Below, in pieces: positions 21,076 to 54,175 of a DNA stretch of 64,000 nt (the first letter of the stretch is position 1; the number at the start of each line of letters is the position of its first letter). This DNA is from an uncultured Alphaproteobacteria bacterium (lineage in GTDB: Bacteria; Pseudomonadota; Alphaproteobacteria; HIMB59; GCA-002718135). The translations under genes and the position numbers were made by a program. The notes beneath the pieces were generated by a model that was not told the origin of the DNA, made no database searches, and saw only the letters and a list, made by a program, of their open reading frames with translations. Where the stretch lies: assembly GCA_902585605.1 (NCBI GenBank), contig CACIED010000002.1, positions 3,415-67,414 of the forward strand, read 5' to 3'.

Positions 21076-21128
21076 ACGTTAAAACATATTGATTTTTGTT
21101 TGAATTTATCGTTAAATGAAATGATATT

Positions 21129-21150: not shown

Positions 21151-21178
21151 CTTGAAAGATCGCTCAAAGGAGGATGAA

Positions 21179-22258
21179 GTGGCAGATATAAATATAAATA
21201 CTGTTAATAAATATTTTGGAGACGTTCACGTAATTAAAGACGTATCTCTAGATATCAAAAGTCAATCATTCACAGTTCTAGTTGGACCAAGTGGTTGTGG
21301 AAAATCGACTATGTTAAGAATGATTGCAGGACTAGAAGATATAAATTCAGGTACAATTTCAATTGATGGTCAAGTAGTTAATGATTTGCCACCAAAACAA
21401 AGAAATATTGCAATGGTGTTTCAGTCATATGCATTATACCCTCACATGACTGTATTTGATAACATGGCTTTTGGTTTGAAATTAGAAAAAAGATCAAAAG
21501 ATGAAATTAATGAAAGAGTTAATGAGGCAGCAAGAATTCTTCAAATAGAAGATTATCTTCAAAGAAAGCCAAAGCAACTTTCAGGTGGTCAAAGACAACG
21601 TGTTGCTATTGGAAGAGCAATTACAAGAAAGCCAAAAGTTTTCTTATTTGATGAACCACTTTCAAACCTTGATGCTGCATTAAGAGTTCAAATGAGAGTT
21701 GAATTAGCAAAGCTTCATAATGAACTAGAAGCAACAATGATTTACGTTACACACGATCAGACAGAAGCAATGACTTTAGCTGATGATATTGTTGTTCTTG
21801 ATACAGGTATCGTTTCACAAAAAGGATCTCCACTTGAACTTTATGACAGGCCCAATAATATGTTCGTAGGTGGATTTATTGGATCACCAAAAATGAACTT
21901 TATTTCTAGTAAGATATTAAGCAAAAGTTCTGATGCTACAGAAGTTGATATTATGGGAATGTCAAAAATATCAGTTTCAAAAATGTCAGCATCCTCCTCA
22001 GAGGGTGATTCAGTAACGCTAGGTATTAGACCTGAACACTTAGTAGTAAATGGTGACTCAGATGGATCTTGGGAAAGTAAAGTATTTGTTGTTGAAAAAC
22101 TTGGTGACGTTACTTACCTATACCTTGAAAAAGATGGAGAGCCATTAGTAGCTGAAACTGAAGGACATTCAGAAATTAAAGTTGGAGATACTGTAAAAGT
22201 TGGTTTTCCTGCTGGAAGATGCCAGTTATTTGACAGTTCAGGACAAGCATTTAAATAA
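21179..22258 (+). CDS. aglK: Carbohydrate ABC ATP-binding protein (MalK/AglK type) with TOBE domain
   Basis: GPSGCGKS, FQSYALYPH, LSGGQRQR and FDEPLSNLD. GTG 21179 follows SD AGGAGGA (21168-21174), so the track start at 21128 is too far upstream. Confidence 0.92.
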   Translation: MADININTVNKYFGDVHVIKDVSLDIKSQSFTVLVGPSGCGKSTMLRMIAGLEDINSGTISIDGQVVNDLPPKQRNIAMVFQSYALYPHMTVFDNMAFGLKLEKRSKDEINERVNEAARILQIEDYLQRKPKQLSGGQRQRVAIGRAITRKPKVFLFDEPLSNLDAALRVQMRVELAKLHNELEATMIYVTHDQTEAMTLADDIVVLDTGIVSQKGSPLELYDRPNNMFVGGFIGSPKMNFISSKILSKSSDATEVDIMGMSKISVSKMSASSSEGDSVTLGIRPEHLVVNGDSDGSWESKVFVVEKLGDVTYLYLEKDGEPLVAETEGHSEIKVGDTVKVGFPAGRCQLFDSSGQAFK

Positions 22259-24235: not shown

Positions 24236-25096
24236 ATGAGTGCATTAATAGACTATATTCAAATAGAAATACACAAAACATATAATAAAAAATATTCTAA
24301 GAAGTATATAGAAGATAAATTAATTCCAATAATAAATTATATTTGCTCTAGTAAATCAAAAAAATTCCTATTTGGAGGGTCTCAGGGTATTGGAAAATCA
24401 TCATTTATTAATATTATCTCTAAAACTATTGAAAAATTTTATAATAAGAAAATACTTTTACTTAGTTTAGATAATTATTATTTATCAAGAAAACAACGAT
24501 CTCAATTATCAAAAAAAATACATCAATTGTTAATAACTCGAGGTGTTCCAGGAACACATGATATTGAAAAATTACTTAAAAATATAAAACAATTCAATAA
24601 AGGTAAATACCCTATCACAACTCCTATATTTGATAAGTTGATTGATGATACGACTAAATCAACAAAAATAACTAAAACTAAATGTGATATTCTTTTCTTA
24701 GAAGGTTGGTGTTGTGGAAGTTCAGAAATTCCAAAAAAAATTCTTCATAAAAATATAAATAATTTAGAAAAAATTAAAGATCCAAAATATCAATGGAGAA
24801 ATTTCTATAATAATAAATTAAAATTAGAATATAAAAAATTATTTAAATTATTTGATGAATTTATTTTTTTGAAAACATCCTCTTTTGATAATGTTTTCAA
24901 ATGGCGGTTAAAGCAGGAAAAAACTAATCAATCAAAAAACAAAAAATCAAAAAGAATGACTTCAAATGAAATTAAATATTTTGTTCAACATTATGAGAAA
25001 ATAACTAAATGGATGATGAAGGATCTAAATAAAAAAGCTCAGATAGTTATTAAATTTGAAAAGAATCATAAAATTTCTTCAATAAATTTTAACTAG
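24236..25096 (+). CDS. P-loop kinase, D-glycerate 3-kinase (GLYK)-like / uridine kinase-PRK superfamily
   Basis: GSQGIGKS, SLDNYYL, TRGVPGTHD, LEGWC and WRLKQE. Confidence 0.7.
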   Translation: MSALIDYIQIEIHKTYNKKYSKKYIEDKLIPIINYICSSKSKKFLFGGSQGIGKSSFINIISKTIEKFYNKKILLLSLDNYYLSRKQRSQLSKKIHQLLITRGVPGTHDIEKLLKNIKQFNKGKYPITTPIFDKLIDDTTKSTKITKTKCDILFLEGWCCGSSEIPKKILHKNINNLEKIKDPKYQWRNFYNNKLKLEYKKLFKLFDEFIFLKTSSFDNVFKWRLKQEKTNQSKNKKSKRMTSNEIKYFVQHYEKITKWMMKDLNKKAQIVIKFEKNHKISSINFN

Positions 25097-25551
25097 AAAA
25101 AAATCCATCTTTTAACCGAATTACAATATCTTTCGAATTCATCACCAAATTTATCTTTTAAATATTTTTCCTCTTCATAAATTACAAAATTATTTAACCA
25201 AAAAAATAATCCTATAGAACAAATAAAATACATAATGTTTTCAAAAGTAAGAAACATACCAAAATGAAATAAAACAAAACATAGATAAATTGGATTTCTA
25301 GAGTAAGCATAAATTCCAGTTTTTATAATTCTATTTGTTTCAGTTTGAGGAGGTAGTTTTTCTTCATGTGCATTAAATGCATTTCTTGAGGAAAAAAATA
25401 CAATTGGCATTAAAATTATAATTAATAATCCAAAAAGATTAAGAATATATAGCAGTGGATATTTAGGAAAAATAAATTCACCTAAAATGTAGGAGGCTAT
25501 CAAAAGATAGACTGAAATATAAAGTGGATTTCCTTTTACATCTGGTCCCAT
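25093..25551 (-). CDS. ICMT/PEMT-family membrane methyltransferase
   Basis: TGIYAYSRNPIY and EEKYLKDKFGDEFERY..V.RW. Confidence 0.85.
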   Translation of the reverse strand: MGPDVKGNPLYISVYLLIASYILGEFIFPKYPLLYILNLFGLLIIILMPIVFFSSRNAFNAHEEKLPPQTETNRIIKTGIYAYSRNPIYLCFVLFHFGMFLTFENIMYFICSIGLFFWLNNFVIYEEEKYLKDKFGDEFERYCNSVKRWIFF

Positions 25552-26211
25552 TTAAAGTTCCTCTATTGCCTTACCTAAACTTTCATAATCACTAAATACA
25601 TTCAAAGCACCATTGTCAAATAATTCATTTTTATCTCTATTTGAATGCCAATGTTTTCCTGCAGTAAGACCAAATACCTTTACTCCTGCTGCAGTTGCTG
25701 CTTTAACACCTACGCCACTATCTTCGATAATGACTGTTTCTTCAATATTAAGTGAATTATCATTTACAACTCTCAAGTATATATCAGGATCAGGTTTTGG
25801 TCTTTTTACCATATCAAATGAGTAAACCTGATCACTTAAAAAAAATTCATCTAATTCAACAAGCTTTAAACCATCCAGAATTCTATCCTTATTACTATTA
25901 GATCCAATAAAATGATTTCTTTCTGATTTACTGATATAGTGTTTTGCTCCTTTGACTAGTTTTAAATCCTTGGAATAAACTTCTGAAACAATATCAAATA
26001 TTTCGTTTGTAAATTTTTCTTTGTTTTCAACCTTATATTCATCAGATAATAAATCTATTACTTCGACTGTTTTTTTTCCGGCATATTTATAAAATTGCTC
26101 CTCTTTAATTGATTGATCAAATTTATTAAAATATTTGGAAAATGCCTTAGAAGCTAAGACCTCACTATCAACTATTACTCCATCAAAATCAAAAATTATA
26201 TTTTTAATCAT
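25552..26211 (-). CDS. HAD-superfamily hydrolase (beta-PGM/CbbY-like)
   Basis: FDFDGVIVDSE, SNS, KPDPDIY and IEDS..GV.AA. Confidence 0.88.
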   Translation of the reverse strand: MIKNIIFDFDGVIVDSEVLASKAFSKYFNKFDQSIKEEQFYKYAGKKTVEVIDLLSDEYKVENKEKFTNEIFDIVSEVYSKDLKLVKGAKHYISKSERNHFIGSNSNKDRILDGLKLVELDEFFLSDQVYSFDMVKRPKPDPDIYLRVVNDNSLNIEETVIIEDSGVGVKAATAAGVKVFGLTAGKHWHSNRDKNELFDNGALNVFSDYESLGKAIEEL

Positions 26212-26215
26212 TATT

Positions 26216-27316
26216 TTATATTTCTGTTATTTTATATTCTGATTTATCTAGCCAGTTAGGATTAATCTCAATACCCCAACCAGGGGTATCTTCAATTTTA
26301 ACCATTCCATTAGATATTTTAAAAGGATCACCTAAAAATAAATTTTGTTGCCATGGATAATAATCTTTACCTTCAATTGAAAATTCAAGATAGGGACCTG
26401 AATTATTTATTGCTTTTAAAAAATGCATTGTACAAATTGTTACTAAAGATAAATTAGCTGTATGTGGAGTACATATAAAACCACCCTTTTCAATAATTTT
26501 AGCAACCTTCAAAGCTTTTGTTAATCCTCCCATGTACATAACATCTGGCTGAAAAATATTTACAATTTTTCTGTTAACCATATCTCTCCAAATTCGCAGA
26601 TCACAATCTTGTTCTCCCCCAGTAACATCTATCTTCAAACTATCAGTAACTTTTTTGGTTTCTTCTGGTTTCCAGTAAGGACAAGGTTCTTCAAAATGAG
26701 TCACATCATTATCTTCTAAAAGTTTCCCAATTTCTATTGCTTGAACAGAGCTATAACAACTGTTTGCATCGACCATCTTAATTACACTTTTATCTAGAGT
26801 AGAATTTATTGTTTTTACTATACTAGGCGTTCTTCCTTCCCATTCATCGATCCCTCTTCCACATTCAGAACCAACTCTAAATTTAAATGCATCAACGCCC
26901 TTTTCATCAAAGAGTTTTTTAAATCTATTTGCTTCGTCATTTGGTGTAATATCTCTTTTCATTGATGAACCATAAATTCTTAAATTTCCTGGAGAACCTC
27001 CTATCAATGAGACTACAGGTTTACTTTCGATTTTACCTTTCAAATCCCACAAGGCTGTATCTAAACCAGCAATTGCTCGTAAAAGATAAGATCCTGGAAA
27101 TTTATGCTCTCTTTCAAAGATAAAATCTTCTAAATCATCAAAATCAAAATATTCTTTTCCTATAACCCAGGGTGCTACTTGTTTATGAAAAATTTGAGCT
27201 GTGATATCTGCATGATAAGTTGACATTTGTCCATAACCAATTGAACCATCCTCAACTGTTATTTTTACAAAACTTACATATGGTTTTGTGAATGTTTCAA
27301 GTTTAACTATTTTCAT
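26216..27316 (-). CDS. Mandelate racemase/muconate lactonizing enzyme (enolase superfamily) member
   Basis: AGLDTALWD, FKFRVG, metal ligands VDAN / FEEP / GGEQ, TPH and YLEF. Confidence 0.88.
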   Translation of the reverse strand: MKIVKLETFTKPYVSFVKITVEDGSIGYGQMSTYHADITAQIFHKQVAPWVIGKEYFDFDDLEDFIFEREHKFPGSYLLRAIAGLDTALWDLKGKIESKPVVSLIGGSPGNLRIYGSSMKRDITPNDEANRFKKLFDEKGVDAFKFRVGSECGRGIDEWEGRTPSIVKTINSTLDKSVIKMVDANSCYSSVQAIEIGKLLEDNDVTHFEEPCPYWKPEETKKVTDSLKIDVTGGEQDCDLRIWRDMVNRKIVNIFQPDVMYMGGLTKALKVAKIIEKGGFICTPHTANLSLVTICTMHFLKAINNSGPYLEFSIEGKDYYPWQQNLFLGDPFKISNGMVKIEDTPGWGIEINPNWLDKSEYKITEI

Positions 27317-27319
27317 TAA

Positions 27320-28933
27320 TTAAATCTTATTTAAATCCTCAATAATAAATTTACTTCCAAGATTAGCAAGCATCATTACAGGGGCATTTATATTGCCAGA
27401 AGTAATATTTGGAAAAACAGATGCATCAGCAATCCAAAGATTCTCCATTCCATGAACTTTTAATCTTTCAGAAACAACTCCCTTTTTAGGATTTTCATCC
27501 ATTTTACAAGTACCACAAGGGTGATATATAGAAACTGCATTAGATTTAAAGTGATCAATCATTTCTTCTTCAGTAGCATTTAAAAGATCATGCGTAACAC
27601 TTTCATTTCTTATTTTTTTTATACTATTTGTATTTGCCAAAACTTGAGAAAAATTAATTGCGCATTTAACATCATATATATCTTCTTCATGTGATAGAAA
27701 ATTTGGATTAATCAATGGAGCATCTTCAAAATTAGGAGAGTTCAATACAACTCTACCCAAACTTTTTGGTCGACAAGAATTATAACCAATAATAAAACCA
27801 TTAAATTTGTCAGTTTTTAGAAGAGGTCTTTTATTTTTATGAGTGATAGAATAAGTCAACGGATTGAAATATATCTGCAAGTTGGGATAATGATGTTTTG
27901 AATTCCAATTTACATATCCCCCAGACTGATTAATACTTAGTGATAATGGTCCTTTCCTATTATAAATATATTTTAATACAGAAGTAATTCTGCCTGGCCA
28001 AGTTCCTAACGATTTATTTAGTGAATGATGATGAGTTTTAAATAAATAATCTAACCCAAGATGATCCTGAAGATTTCTTCCAACATTAGAATTATCAATT
28101 ATTATTTCTTTATCAAATTTTTTTAAATGTTCTTTATCACCAATACCAGAATGCATTAACAAATGAGGTGTCATTATAGAACCAGAACATAAAATTGCTC
28201 CATGAGATAAGTGTATGATTTGTTCTATTGATTTATTTTGAATTTTAATACCTGTAATTTTTTTATCTTTAATTATTAAATTTTTAACTTGAGTATTGTC
28301 TAATATTGTTAGTCTTGGATTTTTTAATACAGGCTTTAAAAATACTTTTGATGATGAATGTCTAGTACCGTTGTAAGTATTAATATTATAATGACCTACT
28401 TGATTTTCGATTGATGTAGTTAAATTTGTATTTTTTTTAATACCAATTTCATTACTAGCATTAAAAAAATATTCTAAAATTGGATGATGATGCTTACTTA
28501 CATTATTTACTGGAATCTTTTCTTTTGTAAGAAATTCTTTATCATGATTTATTTGTTGCTCCATAGAACTGTATACTTTTTTTATATTTTCAAAACTCCA
28601 TTCCTTATTGCTACCCCAATTTTCATAATCTGTTTCTAATCCTCTTGCATAAACCATTGCATTTATTGAGCCAGAGCCACCTAAAACTTTACCTCTCGGA
28701 TAATATATTTGCCTATTGAATAAATTATCTTGTTTTTCTGAGTAGAAGTTCCAATTAATTTTTTTATTATAAAATGTCATTCCATAACCAAGAGGAACGT
28801 CAATAATAGGATTGTTATCTTTAGGCCCAGCCTCAATAAGGGCTATATTAAAATTAGTTTTAGTCAGAAGTTTATTTGCTATTATACTTCCTGCAGAACC
28901 TGCTCCAATAATTGCTATATCAATATTATTCAA
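27320..28933 (-). CDS. GMC-family FAD oxidoreductase (choline dehydrogenase-like)
   Basis: GAGSAG, PRGKVLGGSGSINAMVY, GRNLQDH, YHPCGTCKM and GNINAP. TTG start lies 1 bp after the upstream stop. Confidence 0.88.
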   Translation of the reverse strand: MNNIDIAIIGAGSAGSIIANKLLTKTNFNIALIEAGPKDNNPIIDVPLGYGMTFYNKKINWNFYSEKQDNLFNRQIYYPRGKVLGGSGSINAMVYARGLETDYENWGSNKEWSFENIKKVYSSMEQQINHDKEFLTKEKIPVNNVSKHHHPILEYFFNASNEIGIKKNTNLTTSIENQVGHYNINTYNGTRHSSSKVFLKPVLKNPRLTILDNTQVKNLIIKDKKITGIKIQNKSIEQIIHLSHGAILCSGSIMTPHLLMHSGIGDKEHLKKFDKEIIIDNSNVGRNLQDHLGLDYLFKTHHHSLNKSLGTWPGRITSVLKYIYNRKGPLSLSINQSGGYVNWNSKHHYPNLQIYFNPLTYSITHKNKRPLLKTDKFNGFIIGYNSCRPKSLGRVVLNSPNFEDAPLINPNFLSHEEDIYDVKCAINFSQVLANTNSIKKIRNESVTHDLLNATEEEMIDHFKSNAVSIYHPCGTCKMDENPKKGVVSERLKVHGMENLWIADASVFPNITSGNINAPVMMLANLGSKFIIEDLNKI

Positions 28934-28934
28934 A

Positions 28935-29957
28935 TTAGAATGTTTGTGTTACTTTAGTTAAATATCTAGGATTGTCTGGATCTAATCCCTTTTCAAAAGA
29001 GTAATTAACTATCCATGGATAAAATTTTGATAGAACTATAATTGGATCTAACTCTATCATATCATTAGGGCTATATCTAAGTTTAGTGTTAGAGTTTCTA
29101 TCATAGGTTATTTCATAGTGAAGATTAGTTAATGAAATAATTTGCCTAGCATCTTTTGTTACTATCTTCCCACTTTTGTCTCTAAGTGAGATTGTAAATA
29201 ACTTGAATGAGTTTTGTATCAAGCTTTTGGGCCCATGCATTACTTCAGCACTACTGAAAGGTTCTATCATTTCTTGACATAACTCTTTAAACTTTAAAGA
29301 TATTTCATTAGAAATTGCGTATCCAACACCCCTACTAATTATATATCCATTACTTATAGTTTTATCTAATATATTTGGATTCCATTGATTTTGATTATCT
29401 AAAATTAAATAATCACTAAGCTTTTCAATATGCTTATTAATATCTTTTTTATTAAGAGAATTAAAAACAAGCTTTAAAATTATCAATAAAGACAAAACAA
29501 AAGTTTTTGTTGCTGCAACACTTTTTTCTTCTCCAGCATTTATATCAAAAAAATAATTGGATGTTTTTATAATAGGGCTATTTAAATTATTACTTATTAA
29601 TATGGTCTTTGCTCCCATTTTTTGTACCATTTTATGACATTCAACTAAATCTTCACTTTTTCCAGATTGAGAGATAATAAAAACTAATGCTCTTGAAAAA
29701 TCAAATTTTGATTCTTCTAAAGTTATTATAGATGGAGGCATGCTGTATGTTGGTAAACCAAGATATTTTGCAAACATATAAGACAAATACAGAGCAGCAC
29801 AATCTGAAGTACCTCTTGCAACAGTAACAACATAATCAATTTTTTTTTCTGATATTAAATTTGATATTTCTTGGTAATTATTTTTATCATTCAAGCTAAA
29901 ATGATTAATTTTATTTGGAATTGAGAGTGCTTCGGATAAAACTTGAGAACTAGACAT
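28935..29957 (-). CDS. Double-SIS-domain protein, NagB-II/GlmS-like hexosamine-6-phosphate deaminase
   Basis: ARGTSD.A, SQSG.S, AGEEKSVAATKT and SSAEVMHGP; coupled to nagA. Confidence 0.85.
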   Translation of the reverse strand: MSSSQVLSEALSIPNKINHFSLNDKNNYQEISNLISEKKIDYVVTVARGTSDCAALYLSYMFAKYLGLPTYSMPPSIITLEESKFDFSRALVFIISQSGKSEDLVECHKMVQKMGAKTILISNNLNSPIIKTSNYFFDINAGEEKSVAATKTFVLSLLIILKLVFNSLNKKDINKHIEKLSDYLILDNQNQWNPNILDKTISNGYIISRGVGYAISNEISLKFKELCQEMIEPFSSAEVMHGPKSLIQNSFKLFTISLRDKSGKIVTKDARQIISLTNLHYEITYDRNSNTKLRYSPNDMIELDPIIVLSKFYPWIVNYSFEKGLDPDNPRYLTKVTQTF

Positions 29958-31044
29958 TAATTTTTTTTCCTCTTAAATAAACTTCTTTTAGGTTAAATTC
30001 TTTATCTAAAATAAGAAAATTACTTAAAAAATTTTTTTGAATTATACCAACATTATCTAGATTCAAATATTTAGAAGCATTATAACTAGTTAAAGCAACT
30101 GCTTCTTCTGATGAAAAATCCATTGATATTAAATTTTTAAAAGTTTGATCCATAGTAACAATACTTCCTGCTAAAGTACCATCGGACTTGATTTTTACTG
30201 AATTATTTTCTTTTTTTATTTTATTTTTTGCAAAAATATATTCTCCATCATTCAGTCCGCTTGCGTTTATAGAATCTGTTACTGTATACAAACCGGGAAT
30301 ACATTTATTTGCAATTTTTATTGCTTCTTTACTAACATGAATATTATCGCAAATTATTTCAGCATATTTTCCTTTTGAAAGAGCAGCTGATAAAACTCCT
30401 GGGGATCTATGATCATTACCAGACATAGCATTATACAGATGTGTAAAACCAATTTCATGATCTTTCATAATTTTTTCACAGCAATCAAAGTCTGCCAAAG
30501 TGTGACCAAATTGAATCTTAATATTTAACTCCACTAAATCATTTATAAATTCTTGCATTCCATCAATTTCTGGAGCTAAAGTAATGATTTGTACATCAGA
30601 AATTTCAAGAATTTTTTTTATAAAATCTAAAGATGGTTTCTCAGTTAAATTTGGTTGAGCACCAAGTTTATTAGGATTTATAAAAGGTCCCTCTAAATGA
30701 ACTCCAAGGATATTATTACCATTATCTCTCTTAATTTCCTTAAATCCTTTTAACGCTGAAATAGTATTTTCTAAGGTATTAGTCCAAGTAGTTGGCATTA
30801 TTGAAGTTGTCCCATGCCGTAAATGATATTTTGACATTTCAATAATTGATTGTGAGCCCTCCATTACATCAAAACCATTACCACCATGACAATGGAGATC
30901 AACAAATCCAGGAATTATAATATTATCATAATCTACATAGTCTTTTATTTTCAAGTCGATAATTTTTTCGTTGAAATATACATCTCCAACATAGGAAGAG
31001 TTATGATTTATAATTTTCCCACTAATTTTATTTTGATCAGTCAT
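29950..31044 (-). CDS. nagA: N-acetylhexosamine-6-phosphate deacetylase
   Basis: PGFVDLHCHG, GVHLEGPF, THLYNAM, ICDNIH, VTD and TLAGS. Confidence 0.92.
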   Translation of the reverse strand: MTDQNKISGKIINHNSSYVGDVYFNEKIIDLKIKDYVDYDNIIIPGFVDLHCHGGNGFDVMEGSQSIIEMSKYHLRHGTTSIMPTTWTNTLENTISALKGFKEIKRDNGNNILGVHLEGPFINPNKLGAQPNLTEKPSLDFIKKILEISDVQIITLAPEIDGMQEFINDLVELNIKIQFGHTLADFDCCEKIMKDHEIGFTHLYNAMSGNDHRSPGVLSAALSKGKYAEIICDNIHVSKEAIKIANKCIPGLYTVTDSINASGLNDGEYIFAKNKIKKENNSVKIKSDGTLAGSIVTMDQTFKNLISMDFSSEEAVALTSYNASKYLNLDNVGIIQKNFLSNFLILDKEFNLKEVYLRGKKINV

Positions 31045-31099
31045 CTAACTTTAATATCTTATATAGCAATTTCTTGATTTTTAAAAAAATTTAAAAAAC

Positions 31100-31828
31100 T
31101 TATAAATGAGGATTAATCTTACTAAATTTTTTCTCTAAAATATCATTATTTTTTTTAGCATTTGGCATATTTACACTGATGTAAAATGGGAATAATTTTT
31201 CATTTTTTAAGATATTTGCAACTTCAATTAAAATAGAATTTAAAATAAAGGATCCGGTAATTGTTGAAGCTGGCCCAACCATATTATCTTTTACATTTAT
31301 AATCGCATCACCAGCTGGAATCTTATTATCAATAAATATATCTGTTATTTCAAATAATCTTTTATTTAATTTAGATAGAGGCGCTTGTTTAGAAAATTTA
31401 ACAGATGTTAGTGAAATAGTTTTTATTTTTTTTTTCTTTGCAATTAAAGCTGCTTCAACTGGCGCATGATTAACTCCAGAATTAGACACAATCATTAATA
31501 CATCTTTGCTGGTAATTTTATATTTAGCGAGAGCTTTTTTTGCAATATTTGGAGTTCTTTCTAAAGCAGTAGCTTTTCTTGCTCCTTTTTTAAAACTGAG
31601 ATCATCATCTCTTATTGGACAAGCTGCAGCAAAACCTCCTGCTCTGTGAAATGATTCTTCTCCTAGCAATCTAGAATGTCCAGTTCCAAAAATATATAAC
31701 TGCCCACCTTTTTTATATGATTTGCTAATTAATTTAGCACACTGTAAGAATTTTTTTTCTTCTTCTTTTAATATCTTTTTTAATATTGAATTAATTTTTG
31801 AGGAATAAGACCTTGTTAATTTACTCAT
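31100..31828 (-). CDS. SIS-domain sugar isomerase (UPF0309-like)
   Basis: FGTGHS, EESFHRAGG, SNSGVN and P.YISVN. Confidence 0.85.
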   Translation of the reverse strand: MSKLTRSYSSKINSILKKILKEEEKKFLQCAKLISKSYKKGGQLYIFGTGHSRLLGEESFHRAGGFAAACPIRDDDLSFKKGARKATALERTPNIAKKALAKYKITSKDVLMIVSNSGVNHAPVEAALIAKKKKIKTISLTSVKFSKQAPLSKLNKRLFEITDIFIDNKIPAGDAIINVKDNMVGPASTITGSFILNSILIEVANILKNEKLFPFYISVNMPNAKKNNDILEKKFSKINPHL

Positions 31829-31845
31829 TTGAATTTTACATTAGA

Positions 31846-31870
31846 TGCTAGGGCAAGTTTTGCCCTAGCA
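31846..31870 (-). terminator. Stem-loop downstream of the amino-sugar SBP gene
   Basis: 11-bp perfect stem TGCTAGGGCAA/TTGCCCTAGCA, 3-nt loop. Confidence 0.65.
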
Positions 31871-31884
31871 ATATATTAAAATGA

Positions 31885-33096
31885 TTATTTATATTCTTCT
31901 AACTCTTCAGCAGCTTCAGCTACTAAATCAGCTGGATCACCTTCACCAAGAATTGCTCCCTGGATCATATTATTCATAACTGATTGAAAAGCTTTATAAT
32001 CAACAAATAGAGGTTCTGGTCCACCATCTCCAATTGCATCAATAAACATCATCCAATAGTCATCATTGTAAGGTGCTTCACTACCTATTGAATCGTATTG
32101 CATAATTGGAGTTAATCCCCACTCAGTATCTAATTTATATTGCCATTTTGGAGAAGTAACCATTGCTGCAAATTTATTAGCAAGCTCTTCATTTCCGGTA
32201 TTATTAAAAACAGCAATACTGTCAGTAATTAATAATGTTCCTTGCTCACCTTGTGGTCCAGCAGGAATTCTAACAGTTTTCATATTTAGATCTTCATTGT
32301 GAGTACCTCGTCCCCATGGGCCGTCTATGTACATTGCAATTTTTTTATCATTAAGAAGATCTCTTAATTGAGATCTTTCATATGCTAAAGGACCCTCTTG
32401 AGCTACGTTTGCTAATTTTCCATAAAAAGCAAGAGCTTCAACTGCATTTGAACTATTTAAAGTAATTGTATTGGTATCAGGATCAATAACTTGACCTCCA
32501 TTACTGTATAAATAATTCAGGAACTGATGCATGGTATTATCAAAATCCTTACCAGTTAATCCAATTCCTGCAACACCAGGTACATTATTTGTAACAGCTT
32601 CAGCCATTGTATATAATTCATCCCATGTTTTAGGACCTTCACATGCAACACCCGCTTGCTCTAGTAAATCACAATTCATAAATAAAGCTTTTGTAGAAAA
32701 AGCTCTTGGATATCCCCAAACCTTACCCATGTGAGATACAGTATTTAAAATACCAGGTTGATACATGCCAATTTGTGACTGAGGTATGTCAACATTAATG
32801 ATATGACCATTTTCAGCAAGTCCTTTTAATGTTCTAGAACCAACATATGCTAAATCTACAGGATCTCCCGCAATAGCCAAGTTTATTACTTTGTCCTGAC
32901 ATGTACCCCAGGGAACAGCTTCCCATTTAATAGTAACTCCAGGATTGGCACTTTCGAATTCTGCTGCAACATCCATATCCGCTTGTCTAATTTCACCGCC
33001 ACATAGAATTCCATGTAATTCCTGTGAATTTGCATTGAAACCAAAAAACAAAAAAAATATGAAAGAAGCGATTGAAGTAGTTTTTAAAAATTTCAT
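31885..33096 (-). CDS. Carbohydrate ABC transporter substrate-binding protein (CUT1)
   Basis: Signal peptide, YVGSRTL, PRAFSTKALF and FLNYLYSNGG. SD GGAGGAAA at 33098-33105. Confidence 0.88.
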   Translation of the reverse strand: MKFLKTTSIASFIFFLFFGFNANSQELHGILCGGEIRQADMDVAAEFESANPGVTIKWEAVPWGTCQDKVINLAIAGDPVDLAYVGSRTLKGLAENGHIINVDIPQSQIGMYQPGILNTVSHMGKVWGYPRAFSTKALFMNCDLLEQAGVACEGPKTWDELYTMAEAVTNNVPGVAGIGLTGKDFDNTMHQFLNYLYSNGGQVIDPDTNTITLNSSNAVEALAFYGKLANVAQEGPLAYERSQLRDLLNDKKIAMYIDGPWGRGTHNEDLNMKTVRIPAGPQGEQGTLLITDSIAVFNNTGNEELANKFAAMVTSPKWQYKLDTEWGLTPIMQYDSIGSEAPYNDDYWMMFIDAIGDGGPEPLFVDYKAFQSVMNNMIQGAILGEGDPADLVAEAAEELEEYK

Positions 33097-33165
33097 GTTT
33101 CCTCCAAATTATTTACTACCGTACCACTTTAATATGAATACAATCAAGCAAATTTATTTAATATA

Positions 33166-34005
33166 TTAGTTTTTTACAGCCCCAGCTGTTAAACCTTCTA
33201 CAATATATTTTTGTAAAAATATAAAGACTATTAAAACTGGGAATACTCCAACAATAGAAGCTGCCATCATTTCATTCCATTTCACAGATTGGTAACCAAT
33301 GAATTCAGTTAAACCAGATACTATTGGCATATATTCTCTAATTGAATTAAATGTTATAGCAAAGAGGAATTGTTGAGCGTAAGCTTGAATAAAAGCATAT
33401 ATAGCAGTTACAGCAATGCCTGGAGTGCTCAATGGTGCAATAATTCTGAAAAGAATATCCATTCTCGAAGCTCCATCACAATATGCTGCCTCCTCTAGCT
33501 CAACCGGAATTTTTTCAAAATATGCTTTCAATAGCCATATTGAAGTTGGAATACAAAATGCTATTCCTGGTACAATCATTGCAAAATATGTATTTAAAAG
33601 GTCAAAATATCTTAATAGTTTAAATAGAGGTATTAATAATACCGCTCCAGAAAACATATTTACTGCCAAAAGAACCCATAAACTACCTTGTTTGAATGGG
33701 AAATTAAATCTTGCGTATGAGTATGCAGCAGGAATTACAAATAAAAGTGTAAAAAAAGTTACTGTAATAGCCATAAAAAAACTATTAAAAATATATCTTC
33801 CTAAAAGAGGAACTGTGTTCCACATTTCTCTATATGCCCAAAAAGATAGGTCATCAGAATAAAATTGATAAGGAGATCTAAATATGTGCTTTAAAGGTCG
33901 TAAAGACGCGTAAAACATTTCAACAAAGGGTAATAAGATAAATATAAAAAAAACAGTTATGCTTAGATATAAAAATATTTTTAAAGGTAAGCTATATTTA
34001 TCCAT
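33166..34005 (-). CDS. Carbohydrate ABC permease (CUT1, MalG-like)
   Basis: NMFSGAVLLIPLF and EEAAYCDGASR. Confidence 0.9.
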   Translation of the reverse strand: MDKYSLPLKIFLYLSITVFFIFILLPFVEMFYASLRPLKHIFRSPYQFYSDDLSFWAYREMWNTVPLLGRYIFNSFFMAITVTFFTLLFVIPAAYSYARFNFPFKQGSLWVLLAVNMFSGAVLLIPLFKLLRYFDLLNTYFAMIVPGIAFCIPTSIWLLKAYFEKIPVELEEAAYCDGASRMDILFRIIAPLSTPGIAVTAIYAFIQAYAQQFLFAITFNSIREYMPIVSGLTEFIGYQSVKWNEMMAASIVGVFPVLIVFIFLQKYIVEGLTAGAVKN

Positions 34006-34900
34006 GAGATACCTTTTTGTTTATTCTTGAAAGTAAATAAAAATATGCAATCGCGAACGTTGATATCATAATTACTATCATTACTGCTCTAGCAGATCCC
34101 TTACCAAACTTATAATTACCCAATGCCATTTTGTAAGTATCTATAATCAGAGTTGTTGTTGCTCCTCTTGGTCCGCCTTCTGTTAAAATATAAATTATAT
34201 CAAAAGAGACAAAAGTAGATACAGCGGAAATTAGAGACATAGTTATAATTACCGGTGTTAATTGAGGTAGTGTTATGTGATACCATCTACTAAATCTACC
34301 AGCTCCATCACAATAAGCAGCTTCATATAAATCTCTTGGAATTGCTTGCATACCAGCCAAGAAAAAAAGTGTAACAAATGGTACGCCAACCCAGATATCG
34401 GTTACCATTGTTGCAATAAAAGCACTATTTTTATAAGCCAAAAAACTAAATGGTCCATCTAGAATTCCTAATCGAATTCCAATACCGGATAGTATTCCAA
34501 AATGACCATTGTAAACCCACATCCAGCCAAGTGCACCAATTGCAATCGGCACAACCCAAGGAGGTAAAACTAAAATTCTAAAGAATGATCTACCTCTCAA
34601 ACTTGCATTGAGCAAAACAGCCCCTATCATTCCTATTATTAACTTTAGTAAAACTGAGAAAAAGGTCCATACAAATGTTCGTATAGCTATTTTACTAAAT
34701 TTAGAACTAGATAGAAGTTTTTCATAATTTTCAAAACCAACGTAGTCTTCACCGGCTATACTAGAATTAGTAAATGATAATCTAAATGTTTCTATCAAAG
34801 GCCATCCCACTATACACAAAAGGTATATAACTGCTGGAGCTATTAGAATGTATGCTAAAAAATATTGTGAGTTATATGAATTTAATTTATTTTTTTTCAT
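33998..34900 (-). CDS. Carbohydrate ABC permease (CUT1, MalF-like)
   Basis: YVGFENY, PPWVVP, YEAAYCDGAGRF and TEGGP. Confidence 0.9.
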   Translation of the reverse strand: MKKNKLNSYNSQYFLAYILIAPAVIYLLCIVGWPLIETFRLSFTNSSIAGEDYVGFENYEKLLSSSKFSKIAIRTFVWTFFSVLLKLIIGMIGAVLLNASLRGRSFFRILVLPPWVVPIAIGALGWMWVYNGHFGILSGIGIRLGILDGPFSFLAYKNSAFIATMVTDIWVGVPFVTLFFLAGMQAIPRDLYEAAYCDGAGRFSRWYHITLPQLTPVIITMSLISAVSTFVSFDIIYILTEGGPRGATTTLIIDTYKMALGNYKFGKGSARAVMIVIMISTFAIAYFYLLSRINKKVSHG

Positions 34901-36046
34901 TTAATTAATTATACTATCTAACCTTTCCCAAGTTTCACTAAGATCAATAACTTTTTTATAAATTCTTGCTTCGTCAATTTTCATTGCAATAATGCCAGCT
35001 TCCATACATTCAACTATTCCTACAGGTAACTTGTTATTATTATCAAGTAAATAATTATTTATTTCTTTTACCATCAAACTATCTGCGCCATAATGACCTT
35101 TAACCTCTTTCCCAAATGCAGCTCCATAATTCTCATCGATTAAAATATTATTATTCTCATCATGAGCTTTCATATAGCCTCTAACAAAATCTCCCTCAAT
35201 CATTCCTGATGATCCAATAACTGCAAATCTTCTATATTCATCTGGGACCTTCATATTAGTATGAAAGGATAGCACTGCGTTATTTTCATATTCAATTATT
35301 GCTACTTGATGATCAACAATATCAGCATCACTATCAAAAACATTTGATTTTGACTCCCAACCTCTTAGTCTATCTTTTGTATATTGTTCATGAGAACCTT
35401 CTGGAAGATTATTTGGTATAAAAGATCTTCTTGATCCAAAACTAGCAACTTTCGTAGGCCTGCTTGCCGTTATCATCGAATAGAAATCAATATCATGACA
35501 ACATTTTTCAAGCATAAAGCCTCCTGAATATTTTTGTTTTCTTCTCCAATTTCTCATGAAAAAAGCACCATGGGATGGCTCAATGTGTTCTGAAGCTTCA
35601 ATCGATATTATATTTCCAATAGCATTTTGATCTAATAATTTTCTTACAGATCTAGCTTGCTGCGAATATCTTAAAACTAAACCAACTATGATTCTATCCT
35701 TACCATATTCTTTAATTAGTTTTGCTAATTCGAAAGTTTGCTGTTCATTTATTACAATAGGTTTTTCAGCAAATATTTTTACTCCAGCTCTTAATCCACA
35801 CTTAATATGATCTAAATGTAAATGGTTAGGAGACCCAATCATTAACATATCTAGTTTTTCTTGATCTAACATTTTATTTAAATTTGAATAAGTTTTTTTT
35901 GGCAAAAAATTATGTTTCTCAGCAAATTCTTTACCTATTGGTTGAGGATCTACATAAGCAACCATTTCAAAATTAGGATTAATTTTTGAAAATTCATTAT
36001 AAACACTTACCGTTCTATTCCCAAAACCAACTGCACCTATTTTCAT
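34901..36046 (-). CDS. Gfo/Idh/MocA family oxidoreductase
   Basis: GFGNR, GSPNHLH, EKPIV, GLVLRY and LEKCCHDID. Confidence 0.88.
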   Translation of the reverse strand: MKIGAVGFGNRTVSVYNEFSKINPNFEMVAYVDPQPIGKEFAEKHNFLPKKTYSNLNKMLDQEKLDMLMIGSPNHLHLDHIKCGLRAGVKIFAEKPIVINEQQTFELAKLIKEYGKDRIIVGLVLRYSQQARSVRKLLDQNAIGNIISIEASEHIEPSHGAFFMRNWRRKQKYSGGFMLEKCCHDIDFYSMITASRPTKVASFGSRRSFIPNNLPEGSHEQYTKDRLRGWESKSNVFDSDADIVDHQVAIIEYENNAVLSFHTNMKVPDEYRRFAVIGSSGMIEGDFVRGYMKAHDENNNILIDENYGAAFGKEVKGHYGADSLMVKEINNYLLDNNNKLPVGIVECMEAGIIAMKIDEARIYKKVIDLSETWERLDSIIN

Positions 36047-36065
36047 ATTTATTTTTAGTTTAACA

Positions 36066-37928
36066 TTAAAAATTATGATATCGCCAGCCTAATTTTTTTA
36101 AGAAATTCATAGAATTTAATAAAGCTGAACGAAATTCAGTCCAAGTTCTAGAAATTTTTCCTTTCCATGCAATTTCTGATAAAGTTGCTAATCGTGGATT
36201 AATCATTTGATCAAAAAATTTTTTATCTGTAATTGTCTCTGACCACAATTGGCCTTGTAACCCTTTTATCAATTCTGACTTATTTATATCTTTTATTGGG
36301 TTCCATTCAAAAATATCTTTTACTTCTATAGTTGCGGCCCAACATATTCCTCTTTCTTCAGTTGAATTATTATAAGCCATATCAAAATATGTTTTTTGAC
36401 CAGGGCAAAGTATTGTTTCAAATCCCTTATTTGTAGTTTCTTTTGCAACATCTGAATGCTCCCATGAAAAGATCAAACATGATTTATCAATTTTTCCAGC
36501 ACTTCCACCCACACCATGATTGATATGAGGAGACACTGCCGCCTCATTCCATGCAGCTGTTCTTTTATTTTTTGATTTAAGAAAATCTATTAAAAAATTC
36601 ATATAGTAGTCTTGATATTCTTCTGGTGATTTAATATTATTTTTTTTCATAAACTCAATAATTGCAGGAGAGCCTTCCCACGCATTACTTGGTCTTTCAT
36701 CCACACCGACATGAATTACATCATATGAGAAAATAGCACTTACTTCACTCAACATATCTTTTAAAAAAGTTACTGTTTTTTCTAAAGAAGGATTTATTGT
36801 ATTATTCTTATACGAACCAACATCTTCACTAACTATATTTGAAGACTGTTCTCTAAGCTCAGGCATAATTTCTAGTAATGCCCAAGAATGTGCTGGTAAA
36901 TCAATTTCTGGCATAATCTCAATATTTAATTTTTTTGCATATAAAATTAAATCTTTGATATCTTCCTGTGAATAATATCCGCCATATTTATCATAACCAC
37001 TTCCATACAATGGGGGTATTTTAAAATTATATCCTCTGTATCCTCCATTTAATGCAAGATCGGGATATTTTTTAATTTCAATTCTCCACGCTTCGTTGTC
37101 TGTTAAGTGCCAATGAAATCTATTAAGCTTAAATAATACCATGTAATCAAATAAACGTTTGATTTCATCAATAGTATAGAATTGTCTTGCACAATCAAGA
37201 TGCATTCCTCTCCATTGATATTTTGGATTATCGTGTATTGTGCAGATTGGAAGCTTTGTTTGATAGAAATCAATCAAATGAACTAAAGATATAAGGCTAT
37301 AAAGCTTTCCACCATAAGTATTATATTTAATCTCAATATTATCTTTTGTTATCTGAATAAAATATTGGTCGTTTAATAATTGAGAGTCTTTTTGAAATAA
37401 AATTGGAAATCCTTTTTGAGAAGTTAAATTAATATCCACTTTTGAAATAATATTTTGCAAACTAGAAATAATTTCAGTTTCCACATTGAGCTTAAATGTT
37501 TTATTTTCAATTATTATAAATTTATTTTGTAAATGAATTTTTTTTGGCTCAGGAATAATAGGTATAAAATTTTTTATTTTTAAATCTTCATAAGTTTTCT
37601 TTTTAATTGGTTTTTCAAATATCAAATCTGAAACATTTACATTTAATTTACTATTGTTTAATGTATCGATAATGAAAATACCTTCCGGACCACACGAAAG
37701 GTTGAAGTTACCAATTCTAGGAATTTGTAGATCTAATAAGATTAGATTTTTTTCTATAGATAACTCATAATAGCGTCCAATTTGCTTAGTTATACGAGCT
37801 CCGGTTATAGATTTTATTGAATAAACTAATGAGAAACACAATTTGAAATTTGAATCTACTAATTTATCATCAAGAATAATTTTTAATTTATTTTCTTTTG
37901 TAAAAGATATATTAATTTGATGAGTCAT
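36066..37928 (-). CDS. Beta-N-acetylhexosaminidase, glycoside hydrolase family 20
   Basis: WRGMHLDCARQF, HWHLTDNE.WR, PEIDLPAH, catalytic HVGVDE and QGQLWSE. Confidence 0.9.
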   Translation of the reverse strand: MTHQINISFTKENKLKIILDDKLVDSNFKLCFSLVYSIKSITGARITKQIGRYYELSIEKNLILLDLQIPRIGNFNLSCGPEGIFIIDTLNNSKLNVNVSDLIFEKPIKKKTYEDLKIKNFIPIIPEPKKIHLQNKFIIIENKTFKLNVETEIISSLQNIISKVDINLTSQKGFPILFQKDSQLLNDQYFIQITKDNIEIKYNTYGGKLYSLISLVHLIDFYQTKLPICTIHDNPKYQWRGMHLDCARQFYTIDEIKRLFDYMVLFKLNRFHWHLTDNEAWRIEIKKYPDLALNGGYRGYNFKIPPLYGSGYDKYGGYYSQEDIKDLILYAKKLNIEIMPEIDLPAHSWALLEIMPELREQSSNIVSEDVGSYKNNTINPSLEKTVTFLKDMLSEVSAIFSYDVIHVGVDERPSNAWEGSPAIIEFMKKNNIKSPEEYQDYYMNFLIDFLKSKNKRTAAWNEAAVSPHINHGVGGSAGKIDKSCLIFSWEHSDVAKETTNKGFETILCPGQKTYFDMAYNNSTEERGICWAATIEVKDIFEWNPIKDINKSELIKGLQGQLWSETITDKKFFDQMINPRLATLSEIAWKGKISRTWTEFRSALLNSMNFLKKLGWRYHNF

Positions 37929-37936: not shown

Positions 37937-37942
37937 ATTATA
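37937..37942 (-). promoter_or_regulatory. TATAAT -10 box for a probably leaderless GH20 transcript, overlapping the galK start codon
   Basis: The minus strand reads TATAAT-GGTTCGTT-ATG. Confidence 0.45.
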
Positions 37943-39009
37943 TGAGTTTTAAAGATATATTTAATATAGACGGAGAAGTAAAGGAAAGTGCTCATGCAAG
38001 AGTAAATTTAATTGGTGAACATACCGATTATACTGGTGGATATGTAATGCCTACACTTTTGTCTTTTAAAAATACAATTGAGATAACTGAAAACAACACT
38101 AATGAATTCATAGTTTATTCTCAATATTTTAAAGAAAAAAAAGCATTCAATGATTTCAAAAAATCAACTAACAATGAGTGGGTTGATTATATAAAAGGTT
38201 GTTTACATATTTTTTTTGAAGAAAATAAGATTTCATCGCGATATTTAAACATTTATATTTCATCTGATATACCTTTGGAAAGAGGTATTTCATCATCTTC
38301 AGCATTGTGTGTTGCTACACTAAAAGCACTTAATACTTTTTTTGAAACAAAGATCAAAGATCCAGAAATTGCAAAATTAGCAAAGAAAGTAGAATTTAAT
38401 TATATAGGTGTTTCTGGTGGAATAATGGATCAAATGGTTTCTTCTATTGGTATTCATGGCAAAGCATTTTTTATGAATTGTAAGAATTTAGAATACGAGC
38501 TTATTAGTTTTCCAAAAAATTGGAAATTTTGTTTAATAGACTCTGAAGTGCAACGAAATTTAAGAAATAGCTCTTATAATGAAAGATTTGCTGAACTCCA
38601 AGAAGCTGAAAGAAGCCTTGGTGTAGAATATTTGGGTGGAGTTAAAAAACAAAATTTTCAACCAGATAAATTTGACAATAATACTATTGCAAAAAGAGCA
38701 AAGCATGTAGTTTTTGAAAATGATAGAGTGATTAATGCAAAAAAAAATTTAATAGAAAATAATATTTACGAGTTTGGAAATTTAATGAATGAAAGTCACG
38801 AATCATATTCTAAAGATTTTGAAGCATCTACTTTGGATGTTGATTTAATTGTTAAAAGATCTGTTGAATGTGGTGCTTTAGGTGCTAGATTGACTGGTGG
38901 TGGATTTGGTGGTTTTACAGTTTCGTTAATTGAAAGAAATAATTTTAGTCATTGGTATAGTAAAATATTAAATTTTTACCCAGCTGAAAAGATTTTCGAA
39001 GTCAATTAG
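37942..39009 (+). CDS. galK: Galactokinase (GHMP kinase family)
   Basis: RVNLIGEHTDY, P.ERGISSSSA, GIMDQM and GARLTGGGFGG. Confidence 0.88.
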   Translation: MSFKDIFNIDGEVKESAHARVNLIGEHTDYTGGYVMPTLLSFKNTIEITENNTNEFIVYSQYFKEKKAFNDFKKSTNNEWVDYIKGCLHIFFEENKISSRYLNIYISSDIPLERGISSSSALCVATLKALNTFFETKIKDPEIAKLAKKVEFNYIGVSGGIMDQMVSSIGIHGKAFFMNCKNLEYELISFPKNWKFCLIDSEVQRNLRNSSYNERFAELQEAERSLGVEYLGGVKKQNFQPDKFDNNTIAKRAKHVVFENDRVINAKKNLIENNIYEFGNLMNESHESYSKDFEASTLDVDLIVKRSVECGALGARLTGGGFGGFTVSLIERNNFSHWYSKILNFYPAEKIFEVN

Positions 39010-54172: not shown

Positions 54173-54175
54173 TTA

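Follow-up and report, generated by a model that had tools for sequence, protein, structure and literature searches.

Twelve co-directional genes around nagA in an AEGEAN-169/HIMB59 genome are probably a string of separately inherited modules

The DNA analysed here, called the window, is a stretch of 64,000 nucleotides from an uncultured alphaproteobacterium (GenBank assembly GCA_902585605.1, contig CACIED010000002.1, positions 3,415 to 67,414). At 25093-37928, the listing of open reading frames (ORFs) and profile searches placed twelve co-directional genes on the minus strand. They encode a GH20 hexosaminidase, a Gfo/Idh/MocA oxidoreductase (Gfo), two ATP-binding cassette (ABC) permeases, a sugar-binding protein (SBP), a UPF0309/SIS_2 protein, NagA, a NagB-II-like enzyme, a GMC flavoprotein, an enolase-superfamily enzyme of the MR subgroup, a HAD protein and a PEMT-type methyltransferase (Table 1). 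An initial annotation, made from the letters alone, had proposed this row of genes and given each a family name, and all twelve ORFs and families were recovered. We read the string as probably a lineage-specific concatenation of separately inherited modules and not as one dedicated twelve-step pathway.

From the GH20 gene to the PEMT gene the junctions, calculated from the coordinates, are 19, 0, -8, 69, 56, 55, -8, 1, 3, 4 and 0 nt. The spacing of 0-4 bp that the annotation gave from nagA to the last gene is correct except between nagA and nagB-II, which overlap by 8 nt. A consensus scan of the string found no internal terminator or promoter signals above shuffled expectation, with counts at or below the shuffled ones, and is uninformative either way. 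The divergent galK adjoins the string with 13 bp between its start codon and that of the GH20 gene. Profile searches detected no ROK, BadF, phosphotransferase system (PTS) or ABC ATPase gene within the twelve genes, in line with the earlier statement that the operon lacks an N-acetylhexosamine (HexNAc) kinase and a PTS. The annotation was also right to call Gfo, the GMC protein and the enolase-type enzyme unexplained, as none of the three takes part in the textbook Nag route.

The source organism is a member of the AEGEAN-169/HIMB59 clade and not of canonical SAR11. AG-337-I02 is the GTDB genus name of the AEGEAN-169 group, which belongs to the order HIMB59 and was formerly SAR11 subclade V (PMC8692485, PMC10308909). 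The genome has 1.46 Mb, 29% G+C and is 92% complete. Its closest relatives are GORG single-cell genomes labelled as uncultured Alphaproteobacteria, and in Pelagibacteraceae bacterium AG-337-I02 the GMC protein is 95% identical and the synteny is full. Broad sugar use is already known for the AEGEAN-169 clade, and a galKMT route has been reported for it (PMC10308909); amino sugars are not mentioned in the searchable open-access literature on the AEGEAN-169/HIMB59 clade.

Table 1. Genes of the string and two functionally related neighbours (window coordinates)
Feature	Coordinates	Strand	Basis or remark
galK, GHMP galactokinase	37942..39009	+	TIGR00131; divergent from GH20
GH20 beta-N-acetylhexosaminidase, predicted cytoplasmic	36066..37928	-	Pfam Glyco_hydro_20, 2e-96
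Gfo/Idh/MocA NAD(P) oxidoreductase	34901..36046	-	Pfam; travels with ABC genes
CUT1-type ABC permease 1	33998..34900	-	BPD_transp_1
CUT1-type ABC permease 2	33166..34005	-	BPD_transp_1
Periplasmic sugar-binding protein	31885..33096	-	SBP_bac_1 and signal peptide
UPF0309/SIS_2 phosphosugar enzyme	31100..31828	-	NF002805
nagA, GlcNAc-6-phosphate deacetylase	29950..31044	-	TIGR00221
nagB-II-like double-SIS GlcN-6-P deaminase/isomerase	28935..29957	-	NF046059 best match
GMC flavoprotein oxidoreductase, choline/alcohol-oxidase type	27320..28933	-	GMC_oxred_N and GMC_oxred_C
Enolase-superfamily enzyme, MR subgroup, acid-sugar-dehydratase-like	26216..27316	-	MR_MLE_N and MR_MLE_C
HAD-IA (beta-PGM family) phosphatase-like protein	25552..26211	-	HAD_2, 5.5e-28
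Small membrane PEMT/ICMT-like methyltransferase	25093..25551	-	PEMT, 1.2e-12
MalK/AglK-type ABC ATPase	21128..22258	+	ABC_tran and TOBE_2

The gene order was followed through 54 related loci that hold the GMC and the enolase gene. The pair nagA-nagB-II lies directly upstream of GMC-enolase in 51 of the 54 loci; of the other three, two are truncated at the end of their contig and one (L041) is a variant without nagB-II. The complete set of twelve genes occurs in 36 loci. The operon arrangement is not due to chance. The layout of a divergent galK followed by GH20-Gfo-ABC-SIS-nagA-nagB-II-GMC-enolase and, further on, HAD-PEMT is kept down to about 55% NagA identity.

Within this layout, the ABC block (33166-34900) occurs as two population alleles, with about 100% versus about 71-79% protein identity (for example in L005, L007 and L015). 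The commoner allele has an extra tandem copy of the second permease, as do most related genomes. The genes flanking the block are 95-100% identical, and the allele pattern looks like recombinational replacement at a flexible site. Another alphaproteobacterium, genome G110, carries the genes Gfo (48% identity), permease (56%), permease (60%), SBP (51%) and MalK (54%), preceded by a LacI regulator gene and, in place of GH20, a glycosidase gene of the GHL6/GH42M type. Since the order recurs there, Gfo-permease-permease-SBP forms an independent module. Three other genomes have Gfo homologues of 32-41% identity, which lie among housekeeping genes and are uninformative. The UPF0309 (SIS_2) gene varies between lineages in orientation and allele; the best 120 proteins listed in a search with its product were all at least 73% identical and came from marine metagenomes, giving no gene context from beyond the clade. 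In one genome (G412, loci L041/L176), glmS stands between Gfo and nagA, the ABC, SIS_2 and nagB-II genes are missing, and GMC-enolase-HAD-PEMT remain.

At the other end of the string, most lineages, with at least ten divergent loci among them, have a 3-4 kb block on the opposite strand between the enolase gene and the HAD gene, with genes for an alpha/beta-hydrolase, a luciferase-like monooxygenase and an enzyme dependent on thiamine diphosphate (ThDP). HAD and PEMT therefore form a unit of their own, which abuts the enolase gene only in the lineage of the window. The HAD protein has the DFDGV motif, and the PEMT gene always follows it, including in genera without GMC-enolase at the site. In three such genera, g308, g310 and g314, the site holds the nag cluster together with HAD-PEMT, and GMC-enolase is missing from it. 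The string thus splits into the modules galK/GH20, Gfo-permeases-SBP, the UPF0309 SIS gene, nagA-nagB-II, GMC-enolase and HAD-PEMT.

The GMC-enolase pair was then analysed for its relatives. The GMC protein has the FAD motif GAGSAGS and the C-terminal histidine in HPCGTC. Its best PDB matches are the chloramphenicol oxidase 8B7S, a C3-alcohol oxidase, and the alcohol oxidase 8RPF, with far weaker matches to glucose oxidase and pyranose dehydrogenase. It falls below both BetA cut-offs (TIGR01810, 392 versus 605 bits; NF002550, 330 versus 732 bits). In a tree it groups with GMC proteins encoded next to enolase genes in other Alphaproteobacteria and not with the two other paralogues of its own genome.

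The enolase-type enzyme has its best NCBIfam matches among aldonate and aldarate dehydratases, all far below cut-off. It belongs to none of the characterised equivalogs GalD, ManD, RhamD, TalrD/GalrD, AraD, c3LHyp dehydratase, MLE and OSBS, the best score being 131 bits where the cut-off is 750. Four PDB structures from structural genomics, 3T8Q, 3U4F, 3T9P and 3TCS, all unassigned, share 55-60% identity with it. Literature searches for these structures, or for the enolase superfamily together with GMC, glucosaminate or mannopine, returned nothing relevant. Across 17 orthologues the residues K145, R147, D183, N185, E209, E235, D258, H285 and E311 are invariant. Among them are the residues of the MR subgroup, with D183, E209 and E235 as metal ligands, the dyad H285-D258 and K145. 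By analogy with galactonate dehydratase, we take the dyad to lie on strands 7 and 6 and the lysine on strand 2.

Orthologues of the enolase-type enzyme (52-61% identity) were detected in 24 of 400 other Alphaproteobacteria sampled. Of 20 alphaproteobacterial enolase loci outside the clade, about 12 have a GMC gene in the vicinity, whereas none has nagA or nagB. Neighbours there include LysR or MocR regulators, DAO-family (FAD) oxidases, an aldehyde dehydrogenase (ALDH) and PotD-type or Dpp-type ABC importers; the best PDB matches of the importers' binding proteins are MotA (8e-81), which binds mannopine, and AgaA, which binds agropinic acid. On Phaeobacter plasmids, a LysR gene stands beside a GMC-enolase-ALDH operon that is unlinked to nag genes. 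In R. pomeroyi, the ABC system SPOA0381-0384 of the megaplasmid is flanked by the enolase gene and by a GMC gene annotated as choline dehydrogenase (L191, 414932-434029); from its position, this enolase orthologue is presumably SPOA0378. SPOA0381-0384 is listed as a spermidine uptake system, with reference to Mou et al. 2010 (PMC9038784), and as induced 22-53-fold at noon with a diatom in co-culture studies. The transporter at locus L094 is 67-79% identical to SPOA0381-0384. More distant representatives of the enolase family (38-42% identity) lie in mixed contexts in which SBP_bac_5 importers recur.

The sister genus g308 of the same family has GMC-enolase on another contig, beside a PotD-like SBP with a twin-arginine (TAT) signal and an ABC ATPase, both related to those beside the enolase gene in other Alphaproteobacteria. 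Its nagA-nagB-II pair has no GMC-enolase behind it and is followed directly by the opposite-strand block. In the genera g310 and g314, which have the nag cluster, an enolase orthologue was not found. The linkage of the GMC and MR-subgroup genes to nagA in other genomes, which the annotation had looked to, does not extend beyond the clade: it is seen at 0 of the 20 alphaproteobacterial loci and on none of the roseobacter plasmids, and within the family the genes are unlinked in g308. The sequence comparisons indicate that GMC and the enolase gene form a cassette that is autonomous and that came to lie behind nagB-II in the ancestor of two genera. The ALDH gene that adjoins the pair elsewhere, together with the type of the GMC protein, suggests that a primary alcohol is oxidised to an acid, and the substrate is probably an amine-bearing hydroxy compound.

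Two further regions were compared with the cassette. The window itself contains, on the minus strand at 52068-63244, genes for a PotD-type ABC importer and a DAO oxidase, then an M20 peptidase, two PALP enzymes, an ornithine cyclodeaminase and an arylmalonate-decarboxylase-like racemase. This gene set resembles ectoine/hydroxyectoine (Eut/Doe) or opine-type catabolism. Its importer and DAO module (52068-57794) was considered as the lost transporter of the cassette and rejected; it holds the best matches of the genome to SPOA0381-0384, but these reach 32-47% identity and the DAO protein is not the best match. A metagenome contig with 60% G+C (L186) has an enolase-family homologue of 41% identity with HAD and PEMT genes 2-5 kb away on the same strand. 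It was rejected as the same unit, as the PEMT protein is 33% identical over 84 residues and the HAD protein shows no similarity, so that the neighbourhood is probably a coincidence.

The genome was also searched for kinases that could serve NagA. Of its two ROK genes, one is in a nan cluster; the other, whose product is here called the core ROK kinase, lies at a distance of about 36 kb from nagA. A BadF-type kinase was not found in the genome. The core ROK gene lies about 1.8 kb past the end of the window, on the same contig as the operon, and is present in 95 of the 114 genomes of the family and in 11 of the 11 high-quality ones. Its product scored 367 bits against the fructokinase (Mak) profile with a cut-off of 443, and 252 bits against NagK with a cut-off of 380. 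The nan cluster on contig C1 (38879-42727, L002) comprises nanA-nanE-nanK followed by a class-III aminotransferase gene. It implies catabolism of sialic acid or N-acetylmannosamine (ManNAc) with NagA and NagB-II of the window as the exit.

In some relatives a kinase gene stands within the cluster. A ROK gene lies between SIS_2 and nagA at L175 (same contig as L012), where the GMC protein is 98% identical to that of the window. L169 has a BadF-type kinase directly after GH20 and keeps galK too, and L056, L181 and L182 have a NagK_SO3507-like BadF kinase directly before nagA, beside nanE-nanK. The missing kinase is accordingly a presence/absence polymorphism of the locus. In most genomes, this one included, the kinase is absent from the locus, so the step must come in trans, and we infer that the core ROK enzyme supplies it. 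The absence of a kinase from the operon, on which the annotation had rested its argument, is real, but supply in trans and the polymorphism of the locus would account for it: there is a ROK gene just past the window, whose product scores below the NagK cut-off, as well as a nanK, and relatives have ROK and BadF genes in the cluster. For a complete phosphorylative Nag pathway, the operon provides no HexNAc kinase; a PTS was seen nowhere in the string, and no genome-wide PTS search was made. In the lineage with the BadF kinase (L056, 1222-2262 on the minus strand, and L181 and L182), a gene for a DoeB-like deacetylase of the AstE/AspA family adjoins the UPF0309 gene and may provide a second deacetylation step on an N-acetylated substrate.

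NagA matched TIGR00221 over residues 2-360 with 241.9 bits, above the equivalog cut-off of 225.65, and nagA is present in 88 of the 114 species genomes of the family. The NagB-II-like protein has NF046059 (NagB_SO3506) as its best match, at 227.5 bits and below the cut-off of 430; the C-terminal half of GlmS scored 116 bits, and FrlB was absent from the profile matches. In some relatives glmS replaces or accompanies nagB-II. The UPF0309 protein exceeded the cut-off of NF002805 (228 versus 135 bits), and its PDB matches are 3CVJ (7.5e-39) and NagS, 9EOL (8e-20). When aligned to the NagS residues given in PMC12680351, H53, S54, R64, E94, S119, S121 and D179 are conserved and S91 is replaced by threonine; the catalytic residues H53, R64, E94 and D179 thus all have identical counterparts. 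The protein does not qualify as a NagS orthologue, with the match to 9EOL at 8e-20, an alphaproteobacterial host and no dmdR1 nearby. NagS has been described as related to MurQ, and NagS homologues at 26-36% identity were inactive on GlcNAc-6-phosphate, showing that the catalytic residues are insufficient for activity (PMC12680351). Judged by these alignments, the UPF0309 protein can be read only as a MurQ/NagS-like enzyme on some HexNAc-phosphate, and as a distant relative. An additional phosphosugar step fits this reading; the isomerisation that the annotation had suggested for this protein does not specifically follow from the distant NagS/MurQ type.

At the import end of the string, the GH20 protein matched Pfam Glyco_hydro_20 with 323.8 bits (2e-96) over the catalytic domain and has no signal peptide. 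The HxGxDE-type motif is present as HVGVDE, which we take to be the site of the catalytic Asp-Glu pair. Its best PDB match is the Vibrio GlcNAcase Nag2 (6EZR, 2e-89), and the enzyme is predicted to be cytoplasmic and chitobiase-like. The PDB matches of Gfo are weak and include inositol dehydrogenases, 8QC2/8QC3, RgNanOx (6Z3C) and YjhC (6O15). The SBP has an N-terminal signal peptide and likewise weak PDB matches, led by cellodextrin- and maltose-type binders, and its ligand was therefore left unassigned. The MalK/AglK-type ATPase of the window is 54% identical to the MalK that ends the Gfo-ABC module of G110, and we infer that it is a candidate for a shared energiser of the importer, which has no ATPase gene of its own.

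GalK passed the galactokinase profile (TIGR00131, 262.2 bits with a cut-off of 226.65), and both the galactose-binding signature VNLIGEHTDY and the GHMP motifs are intact. The best PDB matches are the galactokinases 2CZ9, 1PIE and 1S4E, with a much weaker match to the N-acetylgalactosamine (GalNAc) kinase 2A2C (190 versus 103 bits). The gene galT lies elsewhere in the genome, on contig C1. The pair of galK and GH20 is kept in every family locus that reaches this end, and one reading, offered as a suggestion only, is that the imported glycoside may hold galactose besides HexNAc.

Combining these assignments, the SBP-dependent CUT1 importer would take up a short oligosaccharide capped by a beta-linked HexNAc, probably borrowing the nearby AglK/MalK ATPase. 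GH20, assigned to its family by the profile match, would cleave the presumed oligosaccharide in the cytoplasm, and galactokinase and GalT would handle a galactose partner, if there is one. Phosphorylation of the free HexNAc would fall to an enzyme acting in trans, for which the core ROK kinase is the likeliest candidate. NagA, by family membership, would then remove the acetate, and the NagB-II-type SIS enzyme, again by family, would convert glucosamine-6-phosphate to fructose-6-phosphate and ammonia, both enzymes also serving as the exit of the nanA-nanE-nanK route. Gfo, as part of the transporter module, may act on the imported glycoside or its aglycone, and the UPF0309 protein may catalyse a MurQ/NagS-like elimination or hydration on a HexNAc-phosphate. 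The GMC protein would oxidise a primary alcohol to an acid, helped elsewhere by the adjacent ALDH, and the MR-subgroup enzyme would then dehydrate or epimerise that acid. The cassette would elsewhere serve amine-bearing substrates from polyamine- or opine-type importers and would here be co-transcribed with nagAB after its relocation, while HAD-PEMT would be an adjacent unit that a deletion brought into the string.

Several observations weigh against this modular reading. In the genera AG-337-I02 and g312, the GMC gene invariably comes next after nagB-II, either 1 nt away or overlapping it, even where GMC identity falls to 57% and the upstream modules differ; such a tight junction means that the genes are co-expressed, and the pair could have been recruited. 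The orthology of the GMC protein to those of the cassettes rests on a long branch with moderate support (ultrafast bootstrap 90), and the spermidine link of the cassette is transcriptomic and second-hand. An orthologue of the SBP beside the g308 cassette was not found in this genome, which leaves the source of the cassette substrate unexplained. The weak PDB matches of the operon SBP do not permit a ligand to be assigned. As to the kinase, the core ROK enzyme outscores as a fructokinase over NagK while below both cut-offs, its gene is also present in genera where nagA was not found, and its activity on GlcNAc is assumed.

The tight junctions, conserved in two genera, are also what favours an oxidative branch for hexosamines, in which GMC or Gfo oxidises glucosamine, GlcNAc or chitobiose and the enolase-type enzyme eliminates the 3-hydroxyl group, giving a 2-keto-3-deoxy acid and ammonia or acetamide in a kinase-independent manner, in parallel with NagA/NagB-II. 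The enolase-type enzyme is nearest to aldonate and aldarate dehydratases and keeps the metal ligands, the His-Asp dyad and the lysine, and with the usual transporter of the cassette not found here, the operon importer is the nearest source of a substrate. A precedent is the classical route from glucosamine through glucosaminate to 2-keto-3-deoxygluconate (KDG). Another is the Ong pathway, in which a GH20 enzyme acts on GlcNAc-GlcNAc1A (PMC9537276). However, the cassette never occurs with nag genes outside the clade, is unlinked to them in g308, and is missing beside the nag clusters of g310 and g314. The GMC protein resembles primary-alcohol and choline oxidases and not glucose or pyranose oxidoreductases, and the ALDH paired with it elsewhere would be needless for oxidation of an aldose at C1. 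The aldolase for 2-keto-3-deoxy-6-phosphogluconate (KDPG; PF01081) was not found in the 92%-complete genome, there is no OngB- or OngC-type gene in the operon, and none of the six PfkB kinases of the genome lies near it. Such a branch appears unlikely; the annotation had favoured it as a second, oxidative route for amino sugars, and with kinases present elsewhere, GMC-enolase unlinked to nag genes outside the clade and in g308, and HAD-PEMT separate, the observations that the annotation named as refuting it are largely borne out and it finds no support. A distinctly unlikely variant is that the relocated pair was recruited to amino-sugar use, the flavoenzyme oxidising a hexosamine, a HexNAc or a co-released sugar and the enolase-type enzyme dehydrating or deaminating the amino-sugar acid. 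If so, this would be a kinase-independent route from an amino sugar to a 2-keto-3-deoxy acid that does not use pyridoxal phosphate (PLP), and a first function for the family of the four orphan PDB structures.

Two other readings concern the phosphorylated sugar. The operon might handle a modified HexNAc, such as N-acetylmuramic acid (MurNAc) from peptidoglycan or another 3-O-substituted HexNAc, in which case the UPF0309 protein would cleave the 6-phosphate form in the manner of MurQ, as an etherase or eliminase, while Gfo would open an anhydro or modified sugar. The UPF0309 gene lies directly upstream of nagA, its product keeps all residues essential in NagS and the phosphate-binding serines (PMC12680351), and Gfo weakly matches a levoglucosan dehydrogenase and the oxidoreductases RgNanOx and YjhC, which act on 2,7-anhydro-N-acetylneuraminic acid. 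Against it, the inactive NagS homologues cited above show that the reaction cannot be read from these residues, Gfo is matched over its Rossmann half only (E values of 1e-11 to 1e-17), a kinase would still be needed, and no MurNAc-specific gene was seen in the string. We consider this very unlikely, and it is compatible with the modular reading for the other modules. It seems highly improbable that the divergent GalK-family enzyme is itself the missing HexNAc kinase, phosphorylating GlcNAc or GalNAc at C1, with a mutase of the phosphoglucomutase/phosphomannomutase (PGM/PMM) or HAD beta-PGM-like type shifting the phosphate to C6 for NagA. The galK and GH20 genes stay together, 13 bp apart, in all GH20 lineages, animal GALK2 (2A2C among the matches) is a GHMP GalNAc kinase, and PGM/PMM-family genes are present at 7496-8902 of the window and on contig C11. 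Yet the protein passes the galactokinase cut-off with the full galactose signature and prefers galactokinases over GALK2 by 190 to 103 bits, galT is present and galKMT is the normal Leloir route in the clade (PMC10308909), and the in-cluster kinases of relatives are of the ROK and BadF types, with galK kept besides (L169).

Among known systems, the string shares with the Shewanella-type Nag regulon a NagA above the cut-off, a deaminase nearest to NagB_SO3506, a chitobiase-type GH20 and, in relatives, a NagK_SO3507-like BadF gene before nagA. It differs in having no kinase in the operon, in uptake by a CUT1 ABC importer without its own ATPase, in a GH20 predicted to be cytoplasmic, in a NagB-II below the equivalog cut-off, and in the additional genes for Gfo, UPF0309, GMC, enolase-type, HAD and PEMT proteins that run in the same direction. 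The Ong pathway of Pseudoalteromonas is the closest described oxidative amino-sugar route; it is also marine, and its GH20 (OngA) frees GlcNAc and an amino-sugar acid that is then deacetylated and deaminated to KDG (PMC9537276). In contrast to the locus described here, OngA is periplasmic, and the pathway uses neither a GMC nor an enolase-superfamily enzyme. Its D-aminoacylase (OngB), PLP deaminase (OngC), RidA and KdgK are not in this string, OngB and OngC having been looked for in the string and not genome-wide, and no KDPG aldolase was found in the genome. NagS (SCO4393, structure 9EOL), the GlcNAc-6-phosphate dehydratase of Streptomycetaceae, has the same UPF0309/SIS_2 fold, the catalytic His, Arg, Glu and Asp with the serines, and a tie to NagA (PMC12680351). 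The homology is distant (8e-20), whereas NagS orthologues are at least 58.7% identical, restricted to Streptomycetaceae and linked to dmdR1 (PMC12680351). The GMC-enolase(-ALDH) cassettes of roseobacters have an enolase orthologue (53-60% identity) with an adjacent GMC gene of the same clade. There they come with their own LysR or MocR regulator, ALDH, FAD oxidases and polyamine- or opine-type importers; here none of these is present and the pair follows nagB-II.

Two genes flanking the string were also recorded. An ORF at 24236-25096 on the plus strand encodes 286 residues without a Pfam match and with the P-loop-like motif GGSQGIGKSS; it converges on the PEMT gene with a 4-nt overlap, and its position is kept across the family. 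Beyond galK, a TauD-family dioxygenase gene at 39002-40081 on the minus strand overlaps the 3' end of galK with its own 3' end by 8 nt. Its product is nearest to TmpA, the 2-trimethylaminoethylphosphonate dioxygenase (312 bits with a cut-off of 400), and to gamma-butyrobetaine dioxygenase.

AEGEAN-169/HIMB59 cells are abundant in the oligotrophic surface ocean and have a wider sugar use than SAR11. Because nagA is present in most genomes of the family, uptake of HexNAc from chitin or glycans as a source of carbon and nitrogen is probably a general trait of the group, one unreported for AEGEAN-169 in the open literature that can be searched. Many marine Alphaproteobacteria have the GMC-enolase(-ALDH) cassette, model roseobacters among them, and with the mutant libraries of the latter and four solved structures for an orphan family its function should be tractable to experiment. 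The locus itself resembles a flexible island, with exchange of transporter alleles and of kinases at a single site. It illustrates how unrelated modules can be assembled into long co-transcribed strings in streamlined genomes, and cautions against equating membership of an operon with membership of a pathway.

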